DNA of 64,000 nucleotides from Candidatus Zipacnadia bacterium (GTDB taxonomy: Bacteria > Armatimonadota > Zipacnadia > Zipacnadales > UBA5352), in assembly GCA_029820945.1 (NCBI GenBank), contig JALGUJ010000010.1, positions 6,782 to 70,781 of the forward strand, read 5' to 3'. Made by a program: the position numbers and the translations under genes. Below, piece by piece: positions 2 through 18,796 of this stretch. The notes beneath the pieces are model-generated. The model saw nothing but the letters and a program-made list of their open reading frames with translations, did no database searches and was not told where the DNA came from. Position 1 is the stretch's first letter, and the number at the start of each line of letters is the position of its first letter.

Positions 2-1951
2 GCCGCGATCGACAGGATCCACGCCGCCGGGCTGCACGCGGGCGTGCACGTCTTCGGCCCGACGATCTCCCCCAACGATCCCTACGTGACGCCGCTGCCC
101 AGCGACGAGCTGGCCTTCGTGGAGCTGCCGCCGCTGGCGGAGGCGGTGGACGCGGAGGCGACGACCATCACGCTGGGCGAGCAGCCCGGCAACTGGCCGC
201 CGGAGCAGTGGCGGAGCCGGGCCTTCCCCGGCCAGACGATCCGCATCGGCGATGAGCTGATCGACTACGCGGCGGAGGCGGTCGGGCCGCCCTTCCGCTT
301 CACCGGATGCACGCGCGGCGCGCACGGCACGGTCGCCGCGGAGCATCCGGCGCAGGCCGAAGTCAAGGGGATGCTCAGGCAGTGGCACTTCTTCCTCGTG
401 CAGCCCGATACGGATCTGGCCGAGGAGATCACAACCAACTTCGCGGCCCGCGTCAACGAGCTCGGCCTCGACATGGTCTACTTCGACGCCAGCGAGGGAG
501 CCGGGCCGCCCTACCACGATCAGTGGTACTACCTCAACCGGATGCACCTGGGGTACTACTCGAAGTTCGACCATGACGTGCTCTACCAGACCTCCACCGG
601 AACCGGCCGGAACATGCTGTGGCACATCGTGCCGCGCAGCGCATCGGCGGACGGCCACGGGGACATCAAGGGCTACCTCGACGGGCGCTGGCCGGGGATC
701 CTCAACCAGGCCGCGAACTGGACGCGCTCGGACATCGGCTGGTACTACATGTTCAAGGACGTCCGCCCCGATCAGATCGAGTACGTGCGAGCGAAGGCCC
801 TCGGCCTGGGCGCATCGATCTCCATCGAGGCATCGCGGCAGTCGCTGGAGTCGCTGCCCCTGGCGCGGAAGACCTTCGAGATGCTCGCGCGCTACGAGCG
901 GGCGCGGCTGGCGGGCTTCCCGCCCCCCGAGCTCGCTGAACGGATGCTCGAGCCCGGCACCGACTTCCGGCTGTTTGAGGGGGATGAGGGCTTCCGGCTC
1001 CACCGGGCGGTCTACGAGGAGCCGCGGCGAGTGGATGTGCTCGACGGCGAGGCCAACGTCTGGCAGATCGTCAACGACCGCGACCGGCCGTGCGATCTCG
1101 GCGTCGAGATCGTCCGCGGCACGGAGACGGTCGCCGCGCGCGCCTACGGTGACCCGGGCGCGCTCACGATCGAGAGCTTCGATGATCCGCAGGCGTGGCT
1201 GCCGAGCGAGGCGAACGACTACGAGAAGCACGTGCTCGGGGCGCGGAAGGAGATGACCGAGACCGGGCCGGTGATGGCCGGCGTCACCCAGGCCATGGAC
1301 GCTGCGGAGCAGGCGCGCATCGGCGAGGGCGCCCTGGCCTGGTCGGCGGGCAATGAGGCCGCCATGAACGGCTGGAGCGGCATCGGGCGCCGGCTCGACC
1401 CGCCTCTGGACCTGAGCGCATACTCGGGCATCGGCATCTGGATCCACGGCGACGGGATGCACGAGATCGTGCGCGTGCAGCTCCGGGACGTCGAGGGCCA
1501 TTACGCCGAGAAGCTGGTCACCATCGACCACAGGGGCTGGAGCCTGCACACATTCGCGCTGCAGGGGAGTGGGTTCGACGCGTCGCAGGTCGGGTACCTG
1601 GTCTTCTGCCTGAACCGCATCCCGCGAGGGGCCTCGGTGCGGGTTGTGCTCGATGACATGCGGGCCATCCCCGAGACCTCGGGCGCGATGAACCTGCTCA
1701 ATCCCGCGCTGGTGCTCAACGGCAGGCGTATTGAGCTGCCCCTGACCCTGGAGCCGGGGCAGGCCGTGACCTGCGACGGCCCCGACGGCGCGGTCTTCTG
1801 GCCGCCGGGGATGGAGCCGGGCGAGCCGCTGGACCTGGACGTTGCTGCCCTGCGCCTGCAGCCCGGCGAGAACACGGTGGTGCTCGAGTCCGAGGGCGAC
1901 TTCCCCGGCGACGTGCACGTGATCCTCCACCGCATGTGGCCGGTGGAGTGA
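2..1951 (+). CDS. hypothetical protein, 5'-truncated by the window edge; possibly glycan-active with a C-terminal beta-sandwich/CBM-like part
   Basis: The frame is open from position 2 (no stop before the listed GTG at 44) to TGA 1949-1951. Amino-acid composition is ordinary, unlike the Arg/Ala/Pro-rich overlapping frames. No family recognised by eye. Confidence 0.6.
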   Translation, partial: AAIDRIHAAGLHAGVHVFGPTISPNDPYVTPLPSDELAFVELPPLAEAVDAEATTITLGEQPGNWPPEQWRSRAFPGQTIRIGDELIDYAAEAVGPPFRFTGCTRGAHGTVAAEHPAQAEVKGMLRQWHFFLVQPDTDLAEEITTNFAARVNELGLDMVYFDASEGAGPPYHDQWYYLNRMHLGYYSKFDHDVLYQTSTGTGRNMLWHIVPRSASADGHGDIKGYLDGRWPGILNQAANWTRSDIGWYYMFKDVRPDQIEYVRAKALGLGASISIEASRQSLESLPLARKTFEMLARYERARLAGFPPPELAERMLEPGTDFRLFEGDEGFRLHRAVYEEPRRVDVLDGEANVWQIVNDRDRPCDLGVEIVRGTETVAARAYGDPGALTIESFDDPQAWLPSEANDYEKHVLGARKEMTETGPVMAGVTQAMDAAEQARIGEGALAWSAGNEAAMNGWSGIGRRLDPPLDLSAYSGIGIWIHGDGMHEIVRVQLRDVEGHYAEKLVTIDHRGWSLHTFALQGSGFDASQVGYLVFCLNRIPRGASVRVVLDDMRAIPETSGAMNLLNPALVLNGRRIELPLTLEPGQAVTCDGPDGAVFWPPGMEPGEPLDLDVAALRLQPGENTVVLESEGDFPGDVHVILHRMWPVE

Positions 1952-2030
1952 GTCTGGAGTCTCGAGTTGCGAGTTTTGAGTTTCGAGTTTCGAGTTGTTA
2001 GTTGCGAGTTGCGAGTTTGGAGTTCCGAGG
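1950..2030 (+). repeat. 11 in-phase heptanucleotide units (G/U)AGU-N3 plus a partial 12th
   Basis: Read directly: GAGTCTG GAGTCTC GAGTTGC GAGTTTT GAGTTTC GAGTTTC GAGTTGT TAGTTGC GAGTTGC GAGTTTG GAGTTCC GAGG. Local GC is far below the window average. The array lies between the stop of the upstream gene and the SD of the downstream gene. Confidence 0.95.
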
Positions 2031-2063
2031 CGCGCGTCGCGGCGGACCAAGGAGGGCGTTCGC

Positions 2064-2822
2064 ATGAAGCAGTCACTCGTCTGGTGGTCGTTCGTCAACA
2101 GCAGCACCTACTCCCCGGCGGAGATCATGTCCGCGGCCAAGGAGATCGGCTACGACGCCATGGAGATGATGGAGCCCGACCAGATCCCCATGGTCAAGGA
2201 CCACGGGCTGGAGGTCTCCCTGCTCATCGGGCATCAGTCGCTGGGCGATGGGATGAACGATCCCGACAACCACGATCGCATCGCGGATGAGCTGGCGGAG
2301 AGCATTCAGGTCGCGGCGGATAACGACGTGCCGGTGTTGTGCTGCTTCTCAGGCAACCGGCGATTCGGGCTCTCGGAGATCAAGGGCGCGGAGTACTGCG
2401 CGGAGATCCTGGCGCGCATGGCCCCGCAGGCCGAGCAGGCCGGCGTGACGCTGTGCATGGAGCTGCTCAACTCGAAGGTCGATCACCAGGGCTACCAGTG
2501 CGATAGCACGCCCTGGGGCGTGCACGTCTGCCGCATGGTCAACTCGCCGGCGGTCAAGCTCCTGTACGACGTGTACCACATGCAGATCATGGAGGGCGAC
2601 GTGATCCGCACGGTCACGGAGAACATCGAGTGGATCGGGCACTTCCACACCGGCGGCAACCCGGGGCGCAATGACCTCGACGACCAGCAGGAGATCTACT
2701 ACCCGGCGCTCGCCCGCGCCATCGCCGACAGCGGCTATGAGGGCTACGTCGCGCACGAGTTCCGGCCCAAGGGGGACACGATCGAGGCCGCGCAGGCGGC
2801 CTTCGAGATCTTCGACGTCTGA
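2064..2822 (+). CDS. xylose-isomerase-like TIM-barrel protein (hydroxypyruvate isomerase / sugar phosphate isomerase-epimerase family)
   Basis: ATG 2064 is preceded by GGAGG at 2050-2054. Motifs WIGHFHTGGNPGR and YEGYVAHEF are typical of Hyi-like TIM-barrel isomerases. Confidence 0.8.
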   Translation: MKQSLVWWSFVNSSTYSPAEIMSAAKEIGYDAMEMMEPDQIPMVKDHGLEVSLLIGHQSLGDGMNDPDNHDRIADELAESIQVAADNDVPVLCCFSGNRRFGLSEIKGAEYCAEILARMAPQAEQAGVTLCMELLNSKVDHQGYQCDSTPWGVHVCRMVNSPAVKLLYDVYHMQIMEGDVIRTVTENIEWIGHFHTGGNPGRNDLDDQQEIYYPALARAIADSGYEGYVAHEFRPKGDTIEAAQAAFEIFDV

Positions 2823-2857
2823 GGGCGGAAGCCATGAGGCGAGGGGAGGTGGCACGC

Positions 2858-4738
2858 ATGCGCAGGTGGGCGGGAGTATTGTGCCTGATGTTGGTGGTGG
2901 CGCCGTGCGCATCGTGCGCCGCGCAGGACGCGACGGTGACGGTAGACACGTCGGTCCGCCACCAGACGATCCTCGGCTGGGGGAAGAGCACGCCGTGGGC
3001 CCCGGCGCCGGCGCTGGTGCGCGAGATCGTGCTGGAGCGGGCGGTGAACGACCTGGGTCTGACACGCCTGCGCCTGGAGCCCCCCAGCGGCAATCGCACG
3101 ACGCACCGCAACTGGGAGTGGGTCAACGACAACGAGGATCCGCGCGAGATCAACTGGGAGGGCTTCAGCACCCAGGCACTGGACGCCCGGGTGAGCGAGT
3201 GGGTGGTGCCCTTCAAGGAAGCGGTCGAGGCTCGGGGGGAGCCTTTCACTCTCTACGTCAGCCCGTCGTTCTTCGATGGCGGCTCCAGCGGCACCGTGCC
3301 GCCCTGGCTGCTGAACGATCCCGAGGAGTACGCCGAGTGGGCGACGGCGATTCTGCTGCGCCTCCGCGACAGGCATGGCGTGACCGCGGACTGCTACTGC
3401 ATCTGCAACGAGGCAGGGAATAACAACGCCTTCAGGCCGCAGACCGTCGGGGAGATGATTCGGGCGCTGGGGCCACGGATGCGGGAGTTGGGCCTGCCCA
3501 CCATGATCCAGTTCCCCGAGAGCATCAACGTCGCGGTGGCCATGCGCTACATCGAGGCGCTCCAGGATCAGGCGGACATCTGGGAGTGGGTGGGGCTCAT
3601 CAGCTACCATCTCTACGGCCCCAAGGATCGCCTGGCCGAGCTGCGCGAGTTCGCCTTCGCCCGCGGCCTGCCCACCGCACAGACCGAGTTCATGCGCTTG
3701 ACCATCGACGACCTCTATCGGGACCTGACCGTGGGCGGCTGCTCATACTGGGAGATCTACGGGCTGGGCGGCCCCGACTACGCGACCATCGAGGGCGGCA
3801 TCAGCTCCGACAGCTTCCGCGGCGGCAACCACTACTGGCGTTTCCGGCAGGTGCTGCACTACGTCCGGCCCGGCGCGGTGCGCGTCGAGGCCACCTCCAG
3901 CGACCCGACGCTGCGCGTGCTGGCCTTCGAGGACGACGGCGCCGTGACAGTGGTGTTGATCAACACCACGCAGCCCCACGAGGACCGCGCGGTGACCCTC
4001 GCGGGGCTGCCGCCCGGCATCTACGGCGTCTGCCGCACCGTGGGCGCAGGCCCGTACGACGAGGGCGGCCTGATTGACGTGCGCGCGGATGGCAGGGCGT
4101 CGCTCGATGTGGTCGCCGACAGCGTCTACACGCTGTACCCCCATCCCGGCGCGAACCAGCCGCCGACGGTCACCGCCTGGCGGGCGCGGCCGGCTTTCCT
4201 GCACACACCCGATGACAGCGTGAGGCTGTCGGTGGCCGCGACCGACGCGGACCTGGATGACCTGCGCTGCGCCTGGCGCGTGGTGACGCAGCCGCAGGGC
4301 GCGCAGGTGAGCATCGCCGATGCCATGGCGCCCTCGACACAGGCCTCGGGCCTCTCGGTGCCGGGCGAGTATCTGTTCGCCGTCGAGGTCAGCGACGGCG
4401 AGCACGCCGTCGAGCGGCGCCTGATGGTGCCCGTGTTCGCCGAGAACCAGCCGCCGGTGCCCGTGGATGTGCACAACCGCATCCCGGTGATGGTCAGCGT
4501 GCGTGAGGGCCGGACTGAACTCCGGGGCGGGGGGCGCGACGTCGAGGGGGATACGCTGACCATCCGCTGGAGCATCGCCAGCCAGCCGCCGGGTGCGAAC
4601 GCGCTGCTGGAGACGCCCGGCGAGCAGAAGTGCCAGGTGACGGGCCTGACCGTCCCCGGCGACTACGTCTTCCGCTTCGAGCTGAGCGACCCGACGCACA
4701 CAGTCGCCGAGGAGCTGACGGTGCCGGTGACGCGGTAG
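2858..4738 (+). CDS. secreted GH30-like glycoside hydrolase with two C-terminal Ig/PKD-like repeats
   Basis: Signal peptide [24 protein letters not shown]-terminal motif QTILGWG. Catalytic-region motifs CNEAGNN and AQTEF are GH30/GH5-clan like. The C-terminus has two about 95-aa repeats (..[12 protein letters not shown].. / ..DTLTIRWSI..). ATG 2834 is an alternative start. Confidence 0.7.
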
Positions 4739-4937
4739 GCCCGCGAGAGGATCTGCGGCCGTGTCGGGCGACCGGGAACTCCCAGGCGCCCGGCTACCGT
4801 TTACACTCACGCGGAACCCATGCGGCGGTGCCGCCATGAGACGGGCGAGGGCACTCTGCTCGAGGTCCCGACGGCGACGGGTCTGCGTGCGTCGCCTGCA
4901 CCGCCACGCCCTCTCGGGACGGGAGGTCACCGGTCTC

Positions 4938-5573
4938 ATGACCCGCCAAGGATTCACGCTCATCGAGCTGCTCGTGGTCATCGCTATCATCGCCATCCTG
5001 GCCGCGATTCTCTTCCCCGTGTTCGCGGGAGCGCGGGAGAAGGCCCGGCAGACGACCTGCCAGAGCAACCTCAGGCAGTGGAGCATGGCCATGCGGATGT
5101 ACTATCAGGACTACGACGAGCGCGTCTGCCCGGCGCGACTTGACGACAACCTGTACGGGACAGCCGGCATCTGCTGGGACTACCTGGTCATGTCCTACGT
5201 GAACAACGACCAGATTCTGATCTGCCCCAGCGACGGCGAGCCGAAGCAGGCCATCAACTGCTACAGCCACGAGAAGAGCTATGGCGTGAACTACGAGGTG
5301 CACCCACTTCAGGGCTACGGCGGCTATGGCTCGCCGCATCCGAGGGCGTGGCCGCCGCGTCGGATGTCCTCCTTCCTGGAGCCCGCCGAGGTGATCTCGA
5401 TCGTTGACCTCGACTACCCCTCCGCCGGTGTGGACTACACCAGTATCGGCGAGCGGGTGGCATGGCGGCACAATGAGCTGGGCAACGTGGCCTTCCTCGA
5501 CGGCCACGTCAAGGCCATGCGCGAGAACGCCACCCTGGCGCCAAACGATCTCTGGATCCCCGACGTGCTGTAG
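4938..5573 (+). CDS. prepilin-type N-terminal cleavage/methylation domain protein, H-X9-DG family (pseudopilin-like)
   Basis: N-terminus is [30 protein letters not shown]-terminal motif is [16 protein letters not shown] (H, nine residues, then DG). The track ORF start at 4761 is probably too far upstream. Confidence 0.9.
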
Positions 5574-5585
5574 GAGCACCACTGG

Positions 5586-5610
5586 GGCCCGCAGACGGCC
5601 TCCGGGCCGG
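5586..5610. repeat. GC-rich imperfect palindrome (left flank of the HNH cassette); may also terminate the pseudopilin gene
   Basis: GGCCCG-CAGACGGCCTC-CGGGCC. Its reverse complement shares CCGGAGGCCG and CTGCGGGCC with the palindrome at 6720-6750. Confidence 0.7.
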
Positions 5611-5639
5611 TTGACACCGTGATGCGGCTCTGCTAAGAT
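5611..5639 (+). promoter_or_regulatory. sigma70-like promoter TTGACA-17nt-TAAGAT
   Basis: TTGACA at 5611-5616, an exactly 17-nt spacer, then TAAGAT at 5634-5639. It sits in an AT-enriched patch of an otherwise GC-rich intergenic region. Confidence 0.6.
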
Positions 5640-5645
5640 AACCAC

Positions 5646-5858
5646 GGTCCACGCGCGGCCATGGGCTGGCGGGCGCGGGTGGCACGTCGTATGCAGTCGT
5701 CGTGGAGCCATCAGCATGCCTGTTCCCTATCTGAGCACGAAAAAGCGGGCCGGTGAGGACGCCGCTCCGGGTTTCCGGATACGGCCCCGCGCTCCACAGG
5801 TACCGGTGCTGTGCTGATACCGATCTCAAGGCCCGCTGCCACCCGCAGCGGGCCTTTG
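5646..5858 (+). ncRNA. candidate structured small RNA or leader (class unknown), about 210 nt
   Basis: Bounded by the promoter at 5611-5639 and a stem-loop at 5828-5856 (AAGGCCCGCTG / CAGCGGGCCTT) followed by TTT. Internal hairpins include AGCGG..CCGCT and CCGG-GTTT-CCGG. There is no credible ORF. It ends 45 nt before the HNH start codon. Confidence 0.45.
5828..5858 (+). terminator. intrinsic-terminator-like hairpin
   Basis: An 11-bp stem (AAGGCCCGCTG ... CAGCGGGCCTT) with a 7-nt loop, followed by TTTG. Confidence 0.6.
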
Positions 5859-5902
5859 CATTCGCTACACAGCCGGGGTGGCGCAAGGGCTGACACCACA
5901 CC

Positions 5903-6433
5903 ATGAATGGCCAGGTGCTCGTCCTCAACCGAAACTACGAGCCGCTGTCGGTGTGCGGATGGCAGCGCGCAGTCTGCATGGTGTACGTGGGGAAGGCCGT
6001 GGTGGTAGAGGAGGACTCGCGCGTGCTGCACTCCCCCAGCGTGGAGATGCACGTGCCGACCGTCATCAAGCTCTCGTATCAGGTGAAGCGGCCGATGCCG
6101 AAGCTGAAGCTGTCGCGCCAGAACCTGCTGGCGCGGGACCGGTACACCTGTCAGTACTGCGGCCGCCGCAGCAAGAACCTGACCATCGACCACGTCATCC
6201 CGCGCGAGCGTGGCGGCACGTCAAGCTGGGAGAACCTCGTGGCGTGCTGCACCGACTGCAACAACAGGAAGGGCAATCGCACGCCGCGCGAGGCAGGGCT
6301 GCGCCTGATCCGCCGGCCGCGCCGACCCAAGTTCATCCCGTACCTCAGCTATGCGACCTTCACCGCGGCGGTCAAGAACCCCGCCTGGCGTTACTACCTC
6401 GAGCCCTTCGCCCCGCACCTGATCGGGTCCTAG
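5903..6433 (+). CDS. small HNH endonuclease with a PLMP-like N-terminal domain (IshB-like architecture)
   Basis: The C-terminal half has CQYCG..., IDHVIPRERGG, WENLVACCTDCNNRKGNRTP (CxxC...DH...N...CxxC-N, an HNH zinc-finger core). The N-terminus VLVLNRNYEPLSVCGWQRAVCMVYVGKAVVV follows the pattern of the IscB PLMP domain (V.V....G.PLMP....RA..LL..GKA.VV). Confidence 0.85.
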   Translation: MNGQVLVLNRNYEPLSVCGWQRAVCMVYVGKAVVVEEDSRVLHSPSVEMHVPTVIKLSYQVKRPMPKLKLSRQNLLARDRYTCQYCGRRSKNLTIDHVIPRERGGTSSWENLVACCTDCNNRKGNRTPREAGLRLIRRPRRPKFIPYLSYATFTAAVKNPAWRYYLEPFAPHLIGS

Positions 6434-6496
6434 CGCTTGGCTGCAGGATTGAGCGTGGGTTGCGGGGCACGGCAACGGCGCCTCACCCCCCGGCCC

Positions 6497-6541
6497 CCTC
6501 TCCGTGGAAACCGCACACGACGCGGTTTCAGGCGGGAGAGG
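6497..6541 (+). repeat. long two-tier hairpin in a non-coding gap
   Basis: CCTCTCC-GTG-GAAACCGC-ACACGAC-GCGGTTTC-AGGCG-GGAGAGG. It is preceded by CCTCACCCCCC, and a related element occurs at 44618-44644. Confidence 0.7.
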
Positions 6542-6719
6542 AGGAGAACACAACCGCTGGCGCTCATGCCGGACCGCTGCGGATTGCGTAGCACTCAGCG
6601 CTTGGCCCCTCCCACAGGCCCCGCGCGAAGCGCACGGTCAGTGCGAGCGCGGGGGAGGTCACTCGAGGCCACGCCAATGTCTGCAAGCAAGCAGTAGCGG
6701 CGCGAGCCGAGCGATTGCA

Positions 6720-6750
6720 CCGGAGGCCGGGCCTGCGGGCCCGGCCTCCG
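6720..6750. terminator. perfect 13-bp GC palindrome (right flank of the HNH cassette), terminator-like
   Basis: CGGAGGCCGGGCC-TGCG-GGCCCGGCCTCCG. It lies about 290 nt after the HNH stop and about 180 nt before the next gene. There is no clear T-tract. Confidence 0.6.
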
Positions 6751-6931
6751 CGCTTGTGTGATCGCGGGCATATCAGCGGCTGAGCCGCGGCGCGCGTGGG
6801 CAGCGTCTCTGGGGCGAGCCCCGCCGCGTCCGGGTCCCGCAGGCGGCGTCGCGCGGCAGGTCTCGCCGGCCTCACGTCGAACACCCAGGTGGCACACTCA
6901 GGCCCGCTCTCCAGAACTCGGAGGCAAACCA

Positions 6932-7960
6932 ATGGCCCTCTTCGACGACATCGAGGCCGTCCTGCAGCACAGGGCGCCGGAGCGCCTGCCCGTGTTCTGC
7001 CTGTCGCAGGAGTTCGATGCCAGGTACGCCGGCCTCACCTACCGCGAGTACATCAGCTCACCCGAGACGATCGTCGAGGTCCAGCTCGAGGTCATGGACC
7101 AGTTCGAGTGGGACTGGGCCTGGCTGCACCTGGACGACACGCTGGAGTTCGAGGCCCTGGGGGTCGGCGTGGCGGAGGGCGGCGAGAACGTGGTGCCGTG
7201 CACGGCCGACTACCGGGACTTCGACCGCGAGACGCTGCGCTCCCTGGAGGTGCCGGACCCGCGCTCGGCGAGGATGCCGCTGCTGCTGGACGCGGCGGCG
7301 GGCCTGCGCTCGCAGGTCGGTGACAGCAGGTGCATCACCGGCCGCGTAGCCGCGCCCTTCTCCGCGGTCACGCTCATCTTCGGGATGGAGCAGTCCTTGC
7401 TGATGATGCTCGATGACCCGGAGCTGTTCGCCGAGGCACTGGAGTTCGCCGAGGAGCAAGCGATCAGTTGGGGCGTGGCGCAGATCGAGGCCGGGTGCCA
7501 CGCCATCTGGCTGGGCGACTGCAACGCGTCGCTGCACCTCATCTCGCCCGAGCACTACCGCCGGTGGGCCCTGGAGCCGTGCCGGCGCGTCACCGAGGCC
7601 TTCCAGGAGGCCGGGGGGATGGTCATCCTGCACAACTCCGAGGATACCCTCGAGGGGCTCAAGCTCCAGGCCGAGACGGGCCCGGACGTGCTGTCCATGG
7701 GGCCGGGCCTGGACATCGCCCTGGCGATCGAGGAGTTCCGCGGGAAGCAGCCGCTGATGGGGAACGTCGATCCGATCGCGATGCTCACCGAGGGCTCGGC
7801 GTCCGAGGTCGCGGCCGAGACGGGGCGCCAGGTTCGGCTGATGGCCGGCGGCGGCTGCATCCTCAACTCCGGGGAGTGCGTGCCGCGTGAGGCCAAAGGC
7901 GCCAACCTGCACGCCATGGCCGACACTGCGCGGCAGATCTGGGAGCTCGTCGGTCCGTAG
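6932..7960 (+). CDS. uroporphyrinogen-decarboxylase (URO-D) family protein, MtaA/CmuA-like methyltransferase fold
   Basis: ATG 6932 follows GGAGG at 6920-6924. Length is about 342 aa. The overall pattern (PVFCLSQEF..., WLGDCNASL.., ILHNSEDT.., PLMGNVDP, ILNSGECVP) is typical of URO-D-like proteins. The track ORF start at 6758 is upstream of a better SD/ATG. Confidence 0.7.
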   Translation: MALFDDIEAVLQHRAPERLPVFCLSQEFDARYAGLTYREYISSPETIVEVQLEVMDQFEWDWAWLHLDDTLEFEALGVGVAEGGENVVPCTADYRDFDRETLRSLEVPDPRSARMPLLLDAAAGLRSQVGDSRCITGRVAAPFSAVTLIFGMEQSLLMMLDDPELFAEALEFAEEQAISWGVAQIEAGCHAIWLGDCNASLHLISPEHYRRWALEPCRRVTEAFQEAGGMVILHNSEDTLEGLKLQAETGPDVLSMGPGLDIALAIEEFRGKQPLMGNVDPIAMLTEGSASEVAAETGRQVRLMAGGGCILNSGECVPREAKGANLHAMADTARQIWELVGP

Positions 7961-17603: not shown

Positions 17604-18277
17604 CAGACCTCATGCTCCGTGTCCCAGTAATCGCGCCAGACGTCCTCGGGAACGGGAGCGGCGTCCGCGGGGATCACGGTCCCGTTCTCTTCCCTCTCGG
17701 TGTTCGAGTGGTACTGCTCGGGCTTGAGCCACTTGACGTGCGCGTCGCCGAACAGCACGTTCGAGCCGTCGTTGTGGATGCGGCAGACCGCCCAGGCGTG
17801 CAGCGAGCCGCCGCGATGCACAGCCCTGTCGCCGTTCGGCGGCCCGGAGACGCAGCGGTCCCACTCGACCGTGAGGATCTTGTGGCTCGGGCTCTGGATC
17901 TGGGCCCGCGACCGCATCTGGAAGCCCGCCACGGCGCTCCCCGTCGAGGTCTCGCTGTCCATCAGCCCGCCGTTGTAGCCGTGACCGTAGAACCACGGGA
18001 GCTCCCGCCGGCTCGGGCACTTGAACAGCTCGCGGTTCTTCATGTACGGGTCCAGCTTCGTCTTCCACTCAAAGGTGGGCGGGTACATCTCGTCATAGTC
18101 TGACGTGTACATCTCGAAGGCCATCCCCTGCTGCTTCATGTTGCTCAGGCAGGTGATCGCGCGCGCCTTCTCGCGGGCCCGCGCGAAGACCGGGAACAGG
18201 ATCGCCGCCAGTATGGCGATGATCGCGATGACCACGAGAAGCTCGATGAGCGTGAAGCCACGCGGTGACATCAGCAT
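17603..18277 (-). CDS. prepilin-type N-terminal cleavage/methylation domain protein, H-X9-DG-like family (pseudopilin-like)
   Basis: N-terminus [32 protein letters not shown]-terminal motif [17 protein letters not shown]. Start is 18277 or 18271. Confidence 0.85.
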
Positions 18278-18285
18278 GCCCCCAT

Positions 18286-18312
18286 GTACTACGATTGGCA
18301 AAATCGTGCTAC
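18286..18312. promoter_or_regulatory. AT-rich imperfect palindrome, candidate operator or intercistronic hairpin
   Basis: GTAct-ACGATT-GGCAA-AATCGT-gcTAC. It lies between the nikR stop (18335) and the pseudopilin start (18277). Confidence 0.4.
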
Positions 18313-18334
18313 CCACGGGCAACAAAAGAGCGCA

Positions 18335-18796
18335 CTACTGCTGAACGGCCGTGCGGGTCAACTGCCCGTGCTTGACGCCGCGTGCGCTGATCATGCGATC
18401 GGCCAGGCGGCGGACCTGCTCGGCGGCCCCCCGCGCCACGATGACCTCGATGCAGTTATGGTGGTCCAGGTGTACGTGAGTGTTACAGATGACCGTAGGC
18501 TCGGCATCGTGCTGCAGCGCCGTGAGCTTCGCAACAACTCCAGGCACGTGGTGGTCGTAGACCAGCGTGATGGTGCCGACCACCTCACCGTCGGGGGCCT
18601 CCCACTGGCGGTTCACGAGGAAGGCCCGGGCCATGTCCCGCACGGCCTCGGAGCGGTTGGCGTACCCCGCCTCCTCTATCGCCTGATCGAGCTGCTGGAG
18701 CAGCTCGCGGTTCATTGAGACGCCGAATCGCTCGAGCGGCACAGCCAACACTCCCGTAGCACATTCCGGCGAAGCGTAACACACCGACCCGCCCAC
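18335..18796 (-). CDS. nikR: nickel-responsive transcriptional regulator NikR (ribbon-helix-helix plus C-terminal metal-binding domain)
   Basis: RHH region RFGVSMNRELLQQLDQAIEEAGYANRSEAVRDMARAFL. The C-terminal domain has histidine/cysteine metal ligands (VYDHH...HVHLDHHNCIEV). The true start may lie downstream of 18796, for example at a GTG. Confidence 0.85.
   Translation of the reverse strand: MGGSVCYASPECATGVLAVPLERFGVSMNRELLQQLDQAIEEAGYANRSEAVRDMARAFLVNRQWEAPDGEVVGTITLVYDHHVPGVVAKLTALQHDAEPTVICNTHVHLDHHNCIEVIVARGAAEQVRRLADRMISARGVKHGQLTRTAVQQ

Follow-up and report, generated by a model that had tools for sequence, protein, structure and literature searches.

We analyzed a window of 64,000 nucleotides (nt) from a Candidatus Zipacnadia bacterium (Armatimonadota; assembly GCA_029820945.1, contig JALGUJ010000010.1), which carries on its forward strand, at positions 5903..6433, a gene with an ATG start that codes for a protein of 176 amino acids (aa). 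The protein joins an N-terminal domain with the predicted PLMP fold of IscB and IsrB to a zinc-finger HNH nuclease domain. Directly upstream and on the same strand lies a short unit made of a predicted promoter, an untranslated leader, a small open reading frame (ORF) of 33 aa with an invariant Phe-Arg-Ile motif, and a terminator-like hairpin. Both the nature of the nuclease and the role of this unit are considered here.

The protein sequence reads MNGQVLVLNRNYEPLSVCGWQRAVCMVYVGKAVVVEE...CQYCGRR...DHVIPRERGG...CCTDCNNRKGN..., and its full-length AlphaFold2 model has a pLDDT (predicted local distance difference test) of 91.0. Pfam recognized HNH models alone, over residues 83 to 131 (6149..6295): HNH_5 (PF14279; E=2.8e-16, 59.6 bits against a gathering cutoff of 27.5) and HNH (PF01844; E=1.6e-15, 57.4 bits against 21.4). 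The residues of the beta-beta-alpha-metal motif (CQYC ... DH ... N ... CxxCN) are present, and the zinc cysteines C83, C86, C116, and C119 are invariant in an alignment across phyla, as are D96-H97, N111, N120, and K123. These results bear out what had been noticed from the letters of this DNA by an earlier sequence-only reading, namely, a canonical zinc-finger HNH in the 5903-6433 ORF. The active site is intact and the nuclease is predicted to be active, with DNA nicking or cleavage as the default expectation for an enzyme of this HNH type. The remaining residues, 132 to 176 (6296..6430), form a C-terminal tail with two short helices and an invariant W162, according to the model and the alignment.

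IscB is the ancestor of Cas9, and the HNH domain found here belongs with this lineage. Among solved structures, its best match is TbaIscB (E=1.1e-14), in an alignment that extends about 25 residues beyond the HNH core; the other top matches are Cas9d-type chains and a stand-alone nicking enzyme from Geobacter (4H9D). The NCBIfam model guided_IscB (NF040563) covers residues 57 to 130 alone, i.e., the HNH part, and its score of 71.7 bits lies below the cutoff of 175 set for the whole protein. Neither this model nor the Pfam searches found a RuvC segment in the 176-aa protein, in agreement with the sequence-only reading.

The N-terminal domain (residues 1 to 60, 5903..6082) is modeled as four beta strands and one helix, and the same elements were obtained when residues 1 to 66 were modeled alone (pLDDT 91.2). 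We compared the latter model with 350,542 chains of the Protein Data Bank (PDB) using Foldseek, the output of which does not display the aligned ranges. IscB or IsrB accounted for 9 of the 10 best matches (TbaIscB, DtIsrB, HfmIscB, OgeuIscB, and OrufIscB among them), with TM-scores of about 0.6 on the query and probabilities of 0.89 to 1.00. Since DtIsrB lacks an HNH domain, its match must fall in its N-terminal part. The N-terminal domain of IF3 (IF3-N) ranked next, with a probability of 0.72 or lower. The PLMP fold has been described, in the IsrB structure paper, as a four-stranded sheet with a helix that resembles IF3-N (PMC9581776). The comparison of sequence profiles pointed the same way. 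The OgeuIscB N terminus, identical to residues 1 to 71 of 7UTN/7XHT, was used as the reference for gathering PLMP domains, of which 23 were aligned, and hhalign placed the N-terminal profile of the family on this alignment with a probability of 75% (E=2.4e-5) and 36 columns in register (VLVLN..YEPL...RAV.MVYVGKAVVVE against VYVIS..GKPLMP..VRILLKEGKARVVE), sharing V-x-V, P-L, and GKA-x-V. The match to a single IscB sequence was weak (18%), and the higher value was reached only with the PLMP alignment. From the model and these comparisons, we consider it very probable that residues 1 to 60 adopt the PLMP fold of IscB/IsrB.

Several observations weigh against this assignment. It depends on a predicted structure with modest scores, the Foldseek E-values being 0.08 to 0.5 because the domain is small. 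No PLMP match was found in the 176-aa protein with Pfam RRXRR (PF14239, which covers PLMP plus RuvC-I) or NCBIfam, and when 33 diverse members were combined into a HMMER profile of the N-terminal part (61 columns), it retrieved no IscB/IsrB chain from the PDB at E<=10. (The sole match of that profile among PDB sequences was a repeat protein, which we judged spurious.) The eponymous motif is not kept either: the window has YEPLSV and the family consensus is YEPLNV, in which P14 and L15 are conserved but M-P is not. Thus, of the PLMP-like N terminus that the sequence-only reading had proposed, the fold stood, whereas the motif is lost and plain hidden Markov model searches are blind to the domain. 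Together with the presence of IF3-N in the same list of matches, these points favor a reading in which the domain is a generic small alpha/beta fold of IF3-N type, PLMP-like by convergence, and the kinship with IscB/IsrB is limited to the HNH. We regard this as unlikely, because IscB and IsrB stand consistently above IF3, because the columns in register include all three shared sequence elements, and because the attached HNH is itself closest to those of IscB and Cas9d, with a likeness that goes beyond the core. We thus lean toward a stand-alone two-domain endonuclease, composed of a PLMP-fold nucleic-acid-binding domain, an IscB/Cas9d-type zinc-finger HNH, and a short conserved tail. By analogy, the PLMP/IF3-N fold suggests recognition of structured nucleic acid.

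The family to which this protein belongs is very large. A word-indexed protein search gave 5,196 matches, the best 120 of which were nearly all 174 to 203 aa long and included a few named relatives ("HNH endonuclease" or "McrA"). In a profile search of 1.84 billion cluster representatives, 1,285 clusters matched at E<=1e-30 and 11,726 at E<=1e-10; the best 150 were mostly of 160 to 250 aa and covered profile positions 1 to about 166. We take at least 1,285 clusters at 50% identity as the size of the family, whose members are typically 165 to 190 aa long. Species genomes contained at least 597 relatives, from which 80 loci, each on a different contig, were kept. Identity to the window protein follows taxonomy, being 62 to 87% in close Armatimonadota-type metagenome-assembled genomes (MAGs), about 50% in Fimbriimonadales, 44 to 53% in Chloroflexota and Thermus, and 46 to 55% in Acidobacteriota. 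These values and the gene neighbors in species genomes fit descent within lineages.

In the close clade, the genes found downstream of the HNH gene are URO-D, a zinc alcohol dehydrogenase, YajC, DUF4446, a XerC/D-type recombinase, and RecD2, while at 41 Acidobacteriota loci (L033 to L080) a ComF-like gene, made up of a double zinc ribbon and a phosphoribosyltransferase domain, lies about 114 nt upstream on the same strand. The window holds one copy of the family in its 64 kb. A probe for the IS200/IS605 transposase TnpA, checked on solved TnpA structures before use, matched at 1 of 108 family loci (803 kb), 2.6 kb away and on the opposite strand, which is no insertion-sequence context. In the sequences compared from Armatimonadota, Chloroflexota, Thermus, and Acidobacteriota, members of the family are chromosomal single-copy genes with locally conserved gene order; hence, the family has the character of a resident cellular gene rather than that of a passenger of insertion sequences. 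The size of the family and its resident, single-copy nature speak for a cellular role of the nuclease, and against RNA guidance as an obligatory feature.

Some features of these neighborhoods were seen at individual loci. At several Dehalococcoidia loci, the DNA polymerase III delta subunit was weakly matched downstream of the HNH gene. In the window, 499 nt (6434-6932) separate the stop codon of the HNH gene from the start of URO-D, compared with about 100 to 190 nt in relatives; this spacer contains a perfect 13-bp hairpin (6721-6733 / 6738-6750) and, judged by eye, a longer imperfect one at about 6495-6545; this hairpin element had no Rfam match and no further copies in the window. Many relatives are labeled "5-methylcytosine-specific restriction endonuclease McrA" by the Joint Genome Institute (JGI). 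By sequence, EcoKMcrA (6GHC) aligns with residues 89 to 121 alone (E=0.066), and the fold matches of the N-terminal domain are IscB/IsrB and IF3, not the modified-cytosine-reading N-terminal domain of McrA. Since the likeness to McrA is confined to the HNH core, the JGI label looks like an overannotation.

Relatives also occur in phages and plasmids. The phage family phrog_16726 matches residues 4 to 148 (E=5.8e-39), and there are 34 phage and 42 plasmid records that align over at least 80% of the protein's length, all with less than 60% identity. These "HNH endonucleases" have the same two-domain layout, although some are longer and their genomic contexts differ. In Gordonia phage GodonK (L225), the family copy (18211-18723) is located some 1.8 kb upstream of the terminase gene, where packaging-associated HNH endonucleases are typically found. 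Copies, two of them in distant family members, were also found next to transfer RNA (tRNA) genes. In a Kofleriaceae MAG (L040), the HNH gene (3992-4528) sits between tRNA-His and tRNA-Ala, with 24 tRNA genes around it (1635-5211); in a Chloroflexi MAG (L077), five tRNA genes (503-1529) lie directly upstream of it (1721-2224); and in cyanophage S-CBWM1 (L226), a relative is found among tRNA genes. Seen together with the IF3-N-like N-terminal fold, this linkage to tRNA arrays may point to the substrate or to mobility.

Turning to the upstream unit, a sigma-70-type promoter is predicted at 5611..5639 (TTGACA, a 17-nt spacer, and TAAGAT, with TG before the -10 hexamer; 10 of 12 matches). It is the sole promoter-like site that the promoter scan found within 5300-7100, and it implies a transcription start at about 5646. 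A 5' untranslated leader of 70 nt, as read from the sequence (5646..5715), with the Shine-Dalgarno (SD) sequence GGAG at 5704-5707, leads to the small ORF (5716..5817; MPVPYLSTKKRAGEDAAPGFRIRPRAPQVPVLC), which starts with ATG at 5716 and stops with TGA at 5815-5817. The intrinsic-terminator-like hairpin (5829..5862) begins 11 nt past this stop and ends about 40 nt short of the HNH start; its arms (5829-5839 and 5845-5855) enclose the loop CACCC and are followed by a weak T tract, TTTGCATT. The same promoter, at the same distance, the hairpin, and a transcript of about 160 to 215 nt are kept in every retrieved relative with at least 65% protein identity, i.e., in about 17 distinct lineages, and the unit stays beside the HNH gene across at least six different upstream gene contexts, with a downstream neighbor that varies as well. 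At 62% identity (L006) the unit is no longer present, nor is it in Fimbriimonadales, Chloroflexota, Thermus, or Acidobacteriota. A metagenome scan for the pattern CGGATA...terminator gave, among 120 loci listed, three real cases, all adjoining an HNH gene, and leaves room for stand-alone copies of the unit. Upstream of the promoter at one locus (L089:480-740), about 2.5 direct copies of a unit of about 120 nt (…gcgtgcaggagctcgcccaacgggcggcgatgcacgcaa…ggtggagag/aaccgcggcacgaagtcgacgcaagcgtagcttgcgttaagccgcgg…) were seen by eye.

The only strongly conserved internal sequence of the unit is the box TTYCGSATA, which in the window corresponds to the codons TTC CGG ATA (5773..5781) for the invariant Phe-Arg-Ile (FRI). 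The frame that reads the box in this way was open in all 12 box-carrying homologues first analyzed. In these 12 complete units, a start codon is present, the ORF has 27 to 36 codons, and its stop lies 6 to 13 nt before the terminator stem; most have an SD-like sequence (GGAG, GAGG, or GGGAGG) 5 to 10 nt before the start codon. Four more lineages (65 to 70% identity) carry the box, and the ORF could be read through it in three of them, with somewhat different lengths; in the homologue L227, the small ORF, as read from the sequence by eye, runs into the terminator loop. The variable bases of the box are at positions 3, 6, and 9 alone, which are codon third positions (TT[C/T] CG[G/C] AT[A/C]). 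The Gly codon beside the motif changes synonymously among homologues (GGT, GGA, GGC, GGG), CCC, CCG, CCA, and CCT are all used for Pro at the fourth and seventh codons after that of Phe, and a moderately diverged pair (L083 and L216) has 5, 5, and 17 differences at codon positions 1, 2, and 3, respectively. The motif often sits within G-F-R-I-x-P-x-x-P, and the remainder of the peptide is not conserved. The small ORF thus accounts for the conservation of the upstream unit, and we conclude, with good confidence, that what was called an "RNA unit" is not an ωRNA-like molecule but the mRNA from which a small ORF is translated. At one locus with 68% protein identity (L222:1266-1406), the gene caller predicted a longer upstream ORF of 46 aa (...AVGFLPCQRR...) without the FRI box, which is possibly a diverged version of the leader ORF.

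The sequence-only reading had interpreted the same unit as a dedicated upstream RNA with structured flanks and, from this, had held an RNA-associated activity to be worth testing. In its strongest form, the transcript at 5646-5860 would be a dedicated ωRNA-like partner, bound by the PLMP-like domain, and the protein would be RNA-associated or RNA-guided. The arrangement has some resemblance to that of ωRNAs, in that the RNA lies directly upstream on the strand of the gene, ends in a hairpin of well-conserved sequence, and stays with the gene through rearrangements. In addition, the PLMP domain of IsrB and IscB contacts the 3'-terminal hairpins of the ωRNA, just before the ORF, including its SD site (PMC9581776, PMC9640706), which would offer a precedent for such binding. 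Against this, known Rfam families, including HEARO/ωRNA, gave no relevant match in the window and six close loci (E<=1-5) or in 16 distant loci (gathering score). The folding energy of the window unit is ordinary (z = -0.92 compared with shuffled sequence), and the mean z of 13 homologues falls from -2.1 with the terminator to -0.7 without it, so that outside the terminator the unit folds like shuffled sequence. Conservation is limited to a 9-nt box that amounts to three codons with third-position wobble in an ORF with an SD and a stop. The predicted 5' end is a GC-rich hairpin in most homologues, not a free guide, and no transposon end is present by which a guide could be defined. Unrelated contigs commonly carry the hairpin sequence GCCCRCTG...CAGYGGGC, so its conservation is not special. 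Moreover, most of the family lacks the unit, the conserved upstream sequence being confined to relatives that are at least 65% identical. Across the family, we largely found single-copy, syntenic genes of housekeeping type without conserved flanking RNA, contrary to what the RNA-associated proposal would lead one to expect. An RNA-partner role is therefore without support and very unlikely, and the protein is neither mobile nor demonstrably RNA-associated.

A related idea is that the transcript of the gene is bound, at its leader or terminal hairpin, by the PLMP-fold domain of the gene's own product, in parallel with the PLMP contact to the SD-bearing terminal hairpin of the ωRNA in IsrB; we hold this to be highly improbable. 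If true, the locus would be a nonmobile, chromosomally fixed RNA-protein module, either autoregulatory or an RNA-assisted HNH nuclease, and the OMEGA/Cas9 lineage would have in it a stage of its evolution before or after guides. Two RNA candidates were examined and dropped. RNAalifold proposed stems for the unit in three to four close sequences, but the z-scores were unremarkable and the conserved box consisted of codons, and a weak Rfam match to ar14 (E=0.84) was merely the terminator.

The unit could also be a noncoding cis-regulatory leader (a riboswitch or protein-binding attenuator) in which UUYCGSAUA acts as RNA and the frame is incidental. The order of promoter, leader of about 175 nt, terminator, and gene would suit such a leader, and the codons CGG and ATA are kept far above the prediction from codon usage: ATA encodes the motif Ile in 11 of the 12 homologues (5779-5781 in the window), while it makes up 3.9% of the Ile codons in the long ORFs of the window. 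The retention of ATA suggests selection for a slow codon or a constraint at the RNA level. In the five closest sequences, a copy of the terminator 3' arm (AGCGGGCC) about 80 nt upstream is a candidate antiterminator, but this box is missing in the other lineages and the antiterminator idea was rejected as valid for those five alone. The thermodynamic signal in the body of the leader is also weak, and there is no match to an Rfam family. Furthermore, the variation of the box exactly at codon third positions, the synonymous changes of the flanking Gly and Pro codons, and the consistent placement of SD and start codon count against it. We consider an RNA-level leader of this kind quite unlikely.

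If the small ORF is translated, its peptide might itself be the product that matters, as a functional microprotein that would be produced in larger amounts than the HNH protein and would serve, for example, as inhibitor, antitoxin, or docking partner of the nuclease. It has a complete gene, with promoter, SD, ORF, and terminator, and in all relatives of at least 65% identity this gene and the HNH gene are tightly linked. An upstream, more highly expressed position is typical of antitoxins, and the Phe-Arg-Ile motif is invariant. However, these are the only three invariant residues, with the rest of the peptide and its length drifting freely, and the family works without the small ORF in nearly all lineages, phages, and plasmids. 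The 33-aa peptide had no Pfam match. No tandem repeats were found in 5550-6950, which speaks against a type III (ToxIN-like) toxin-antitoxin system. A microprotein function appears doubtful on balance.

We lean instead toward a housekeeping-type PLMP-HNH nuclease that, in this Armatimonadota clade, would be expressed through a unit of leader ORF and terminator. The geometry of a leader-peptide attenuator is present: a short ORF with a ribosome-binding site adjoins a predicted intrinsic terminator upstream of the HNH gene, and no promoter-like site lies in between. Since there is no promoter-like site in the 40 nt after the terminator, the HNH gene is probably transcribed by read-through. The stop of the small ORF falls within one ribosome footprint of the first terminator arm; hence, a ribosome finishing translation would hinder the hairpin and permit read-through. 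A ribosome that trails the polymerase to the end of the small ORF would block hairpin formation, whereas a lagging ribosome would let the hairpin form and transcription terminate, and in this way translation of the leader ORF would set the amount of nuclease mRNA. The nascent FRI peptide or the rare ATA codon, with FRI about 8 to 19 residues before the stop, would be the candidate element for pausing, arrest, or sensing. The outcome would be low, conditional expression of a potentially harmful nuclease.

Other observations count against such a regulatory role for the small ORF. Most of the peptide is unconserved, its length varies from 25 to 36 aa and the distance from motif to stop from 8 to 19 codons, open frames are cheap in GC-rich DNA, and a motif at the RNA level could equally explain the near invariance of ATA and CGG. 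Promoter, transcription start, and terminator were predicted from sequence, and the scan could have missed a promoter of an unfamiliar type between the terminator and the HNH start. The T tract in the window is weak, and a strict terminator scan of the window does not call a terminator here, while the homologues have better T tracts.

The closest known counterparts of this arrangement are the leaders of pyrBI and tnaC in E. coli, in which a short translated ORF ends by a termination signal and the position of the ribosome controls read-through. Ribosome coupling of the pyrBI type and a TnaC-like arrest at the stop codon would act alike, and TnaC itself has a few conserved residues away from the stop, such as Trp12. 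The likeness lies in the short ORF ending beside a terminator and in the few conserved residues distant from the stop; the motif and the regulated gene are unrelated, and the mechanism proposed here is drawn from geometry alone. With this reservation, the 33-aa ORF with its invariant Phe-Arg-Ile set against a terminator could show how this Armatimonadota clade restrains a nuclease gene. The conserved leader ORF is a modest new result, and the nuclease itself joins a known but functionally unstudied architecture.

As for the protein, it shares its N-terminal fold with IscB and IsrB (OgeuIscB 7XHT/7UTN, DtIsrB 8DMB), and its HNH is closest to those of IscB and Cas9d, but it has no RuvC, bridge helix, or target-adjacent motif (TAM)-interacting domain, nor a HEARO/ωRNA match. 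The PLMP domain of IscB packs on RuvC, a partner that the protein described here does not have. The closest solved stand-alone HNH is the nicking endonuclease of Geobacter metallireducens, Gme (PDB 4H9D; E=2.4e-9), with 42 to 45% identity over 53 to 62 aligned columns and a root mean square deviation of 2.0 to 2.9; it differs in its length of 112 aa and in having no N-terminal PLMP-fold domain.

The architecture itself corresponds to that of IshB, a name reportedly given by Altae-Tran in 2021. The IshB proteins are described, in secondary accounts, as proteins of about 180 aa with PLMP and HNH, no RuvC, no TAM-interacting domain, and an uncharacterized function (PMC10734217, PMC11610941, PMC13284715). 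To the extent of that description, the 176-aa protein agrees in size, in the lack of RuvC and of a TAM-interacting domain, in a PLMP fold (by predicted structure), and in an HNH of the IscB/Cas9 lineage with intact catalytic residues. It differs in the replacement of the P-L-M-P motif by YEPL(S/N)V, in the lack of IS200/IS605 context (TnpA matched at 1 of 108 loci, at a distance and on the other strand, and a single copy in the window), and in that no ωRNA of known Rfam families was detected beside the nuclease gene in the window and 22 related loci. The description as an IshB-like minimal relative of IscB, made by the sequence-only reading, thus holds for the architecture but not for the genomic setting, the gene being single-copy and without insertion-sequence context. 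PLMP plus HNH has been cited as possibly representing an early stage of the Cas9 lineage, one compatible with RNA (PMC13284715). The family described here indicates that this architecture is neither rare nor confined to insertion sequences, being found in resident single-copy genes of several phyla.

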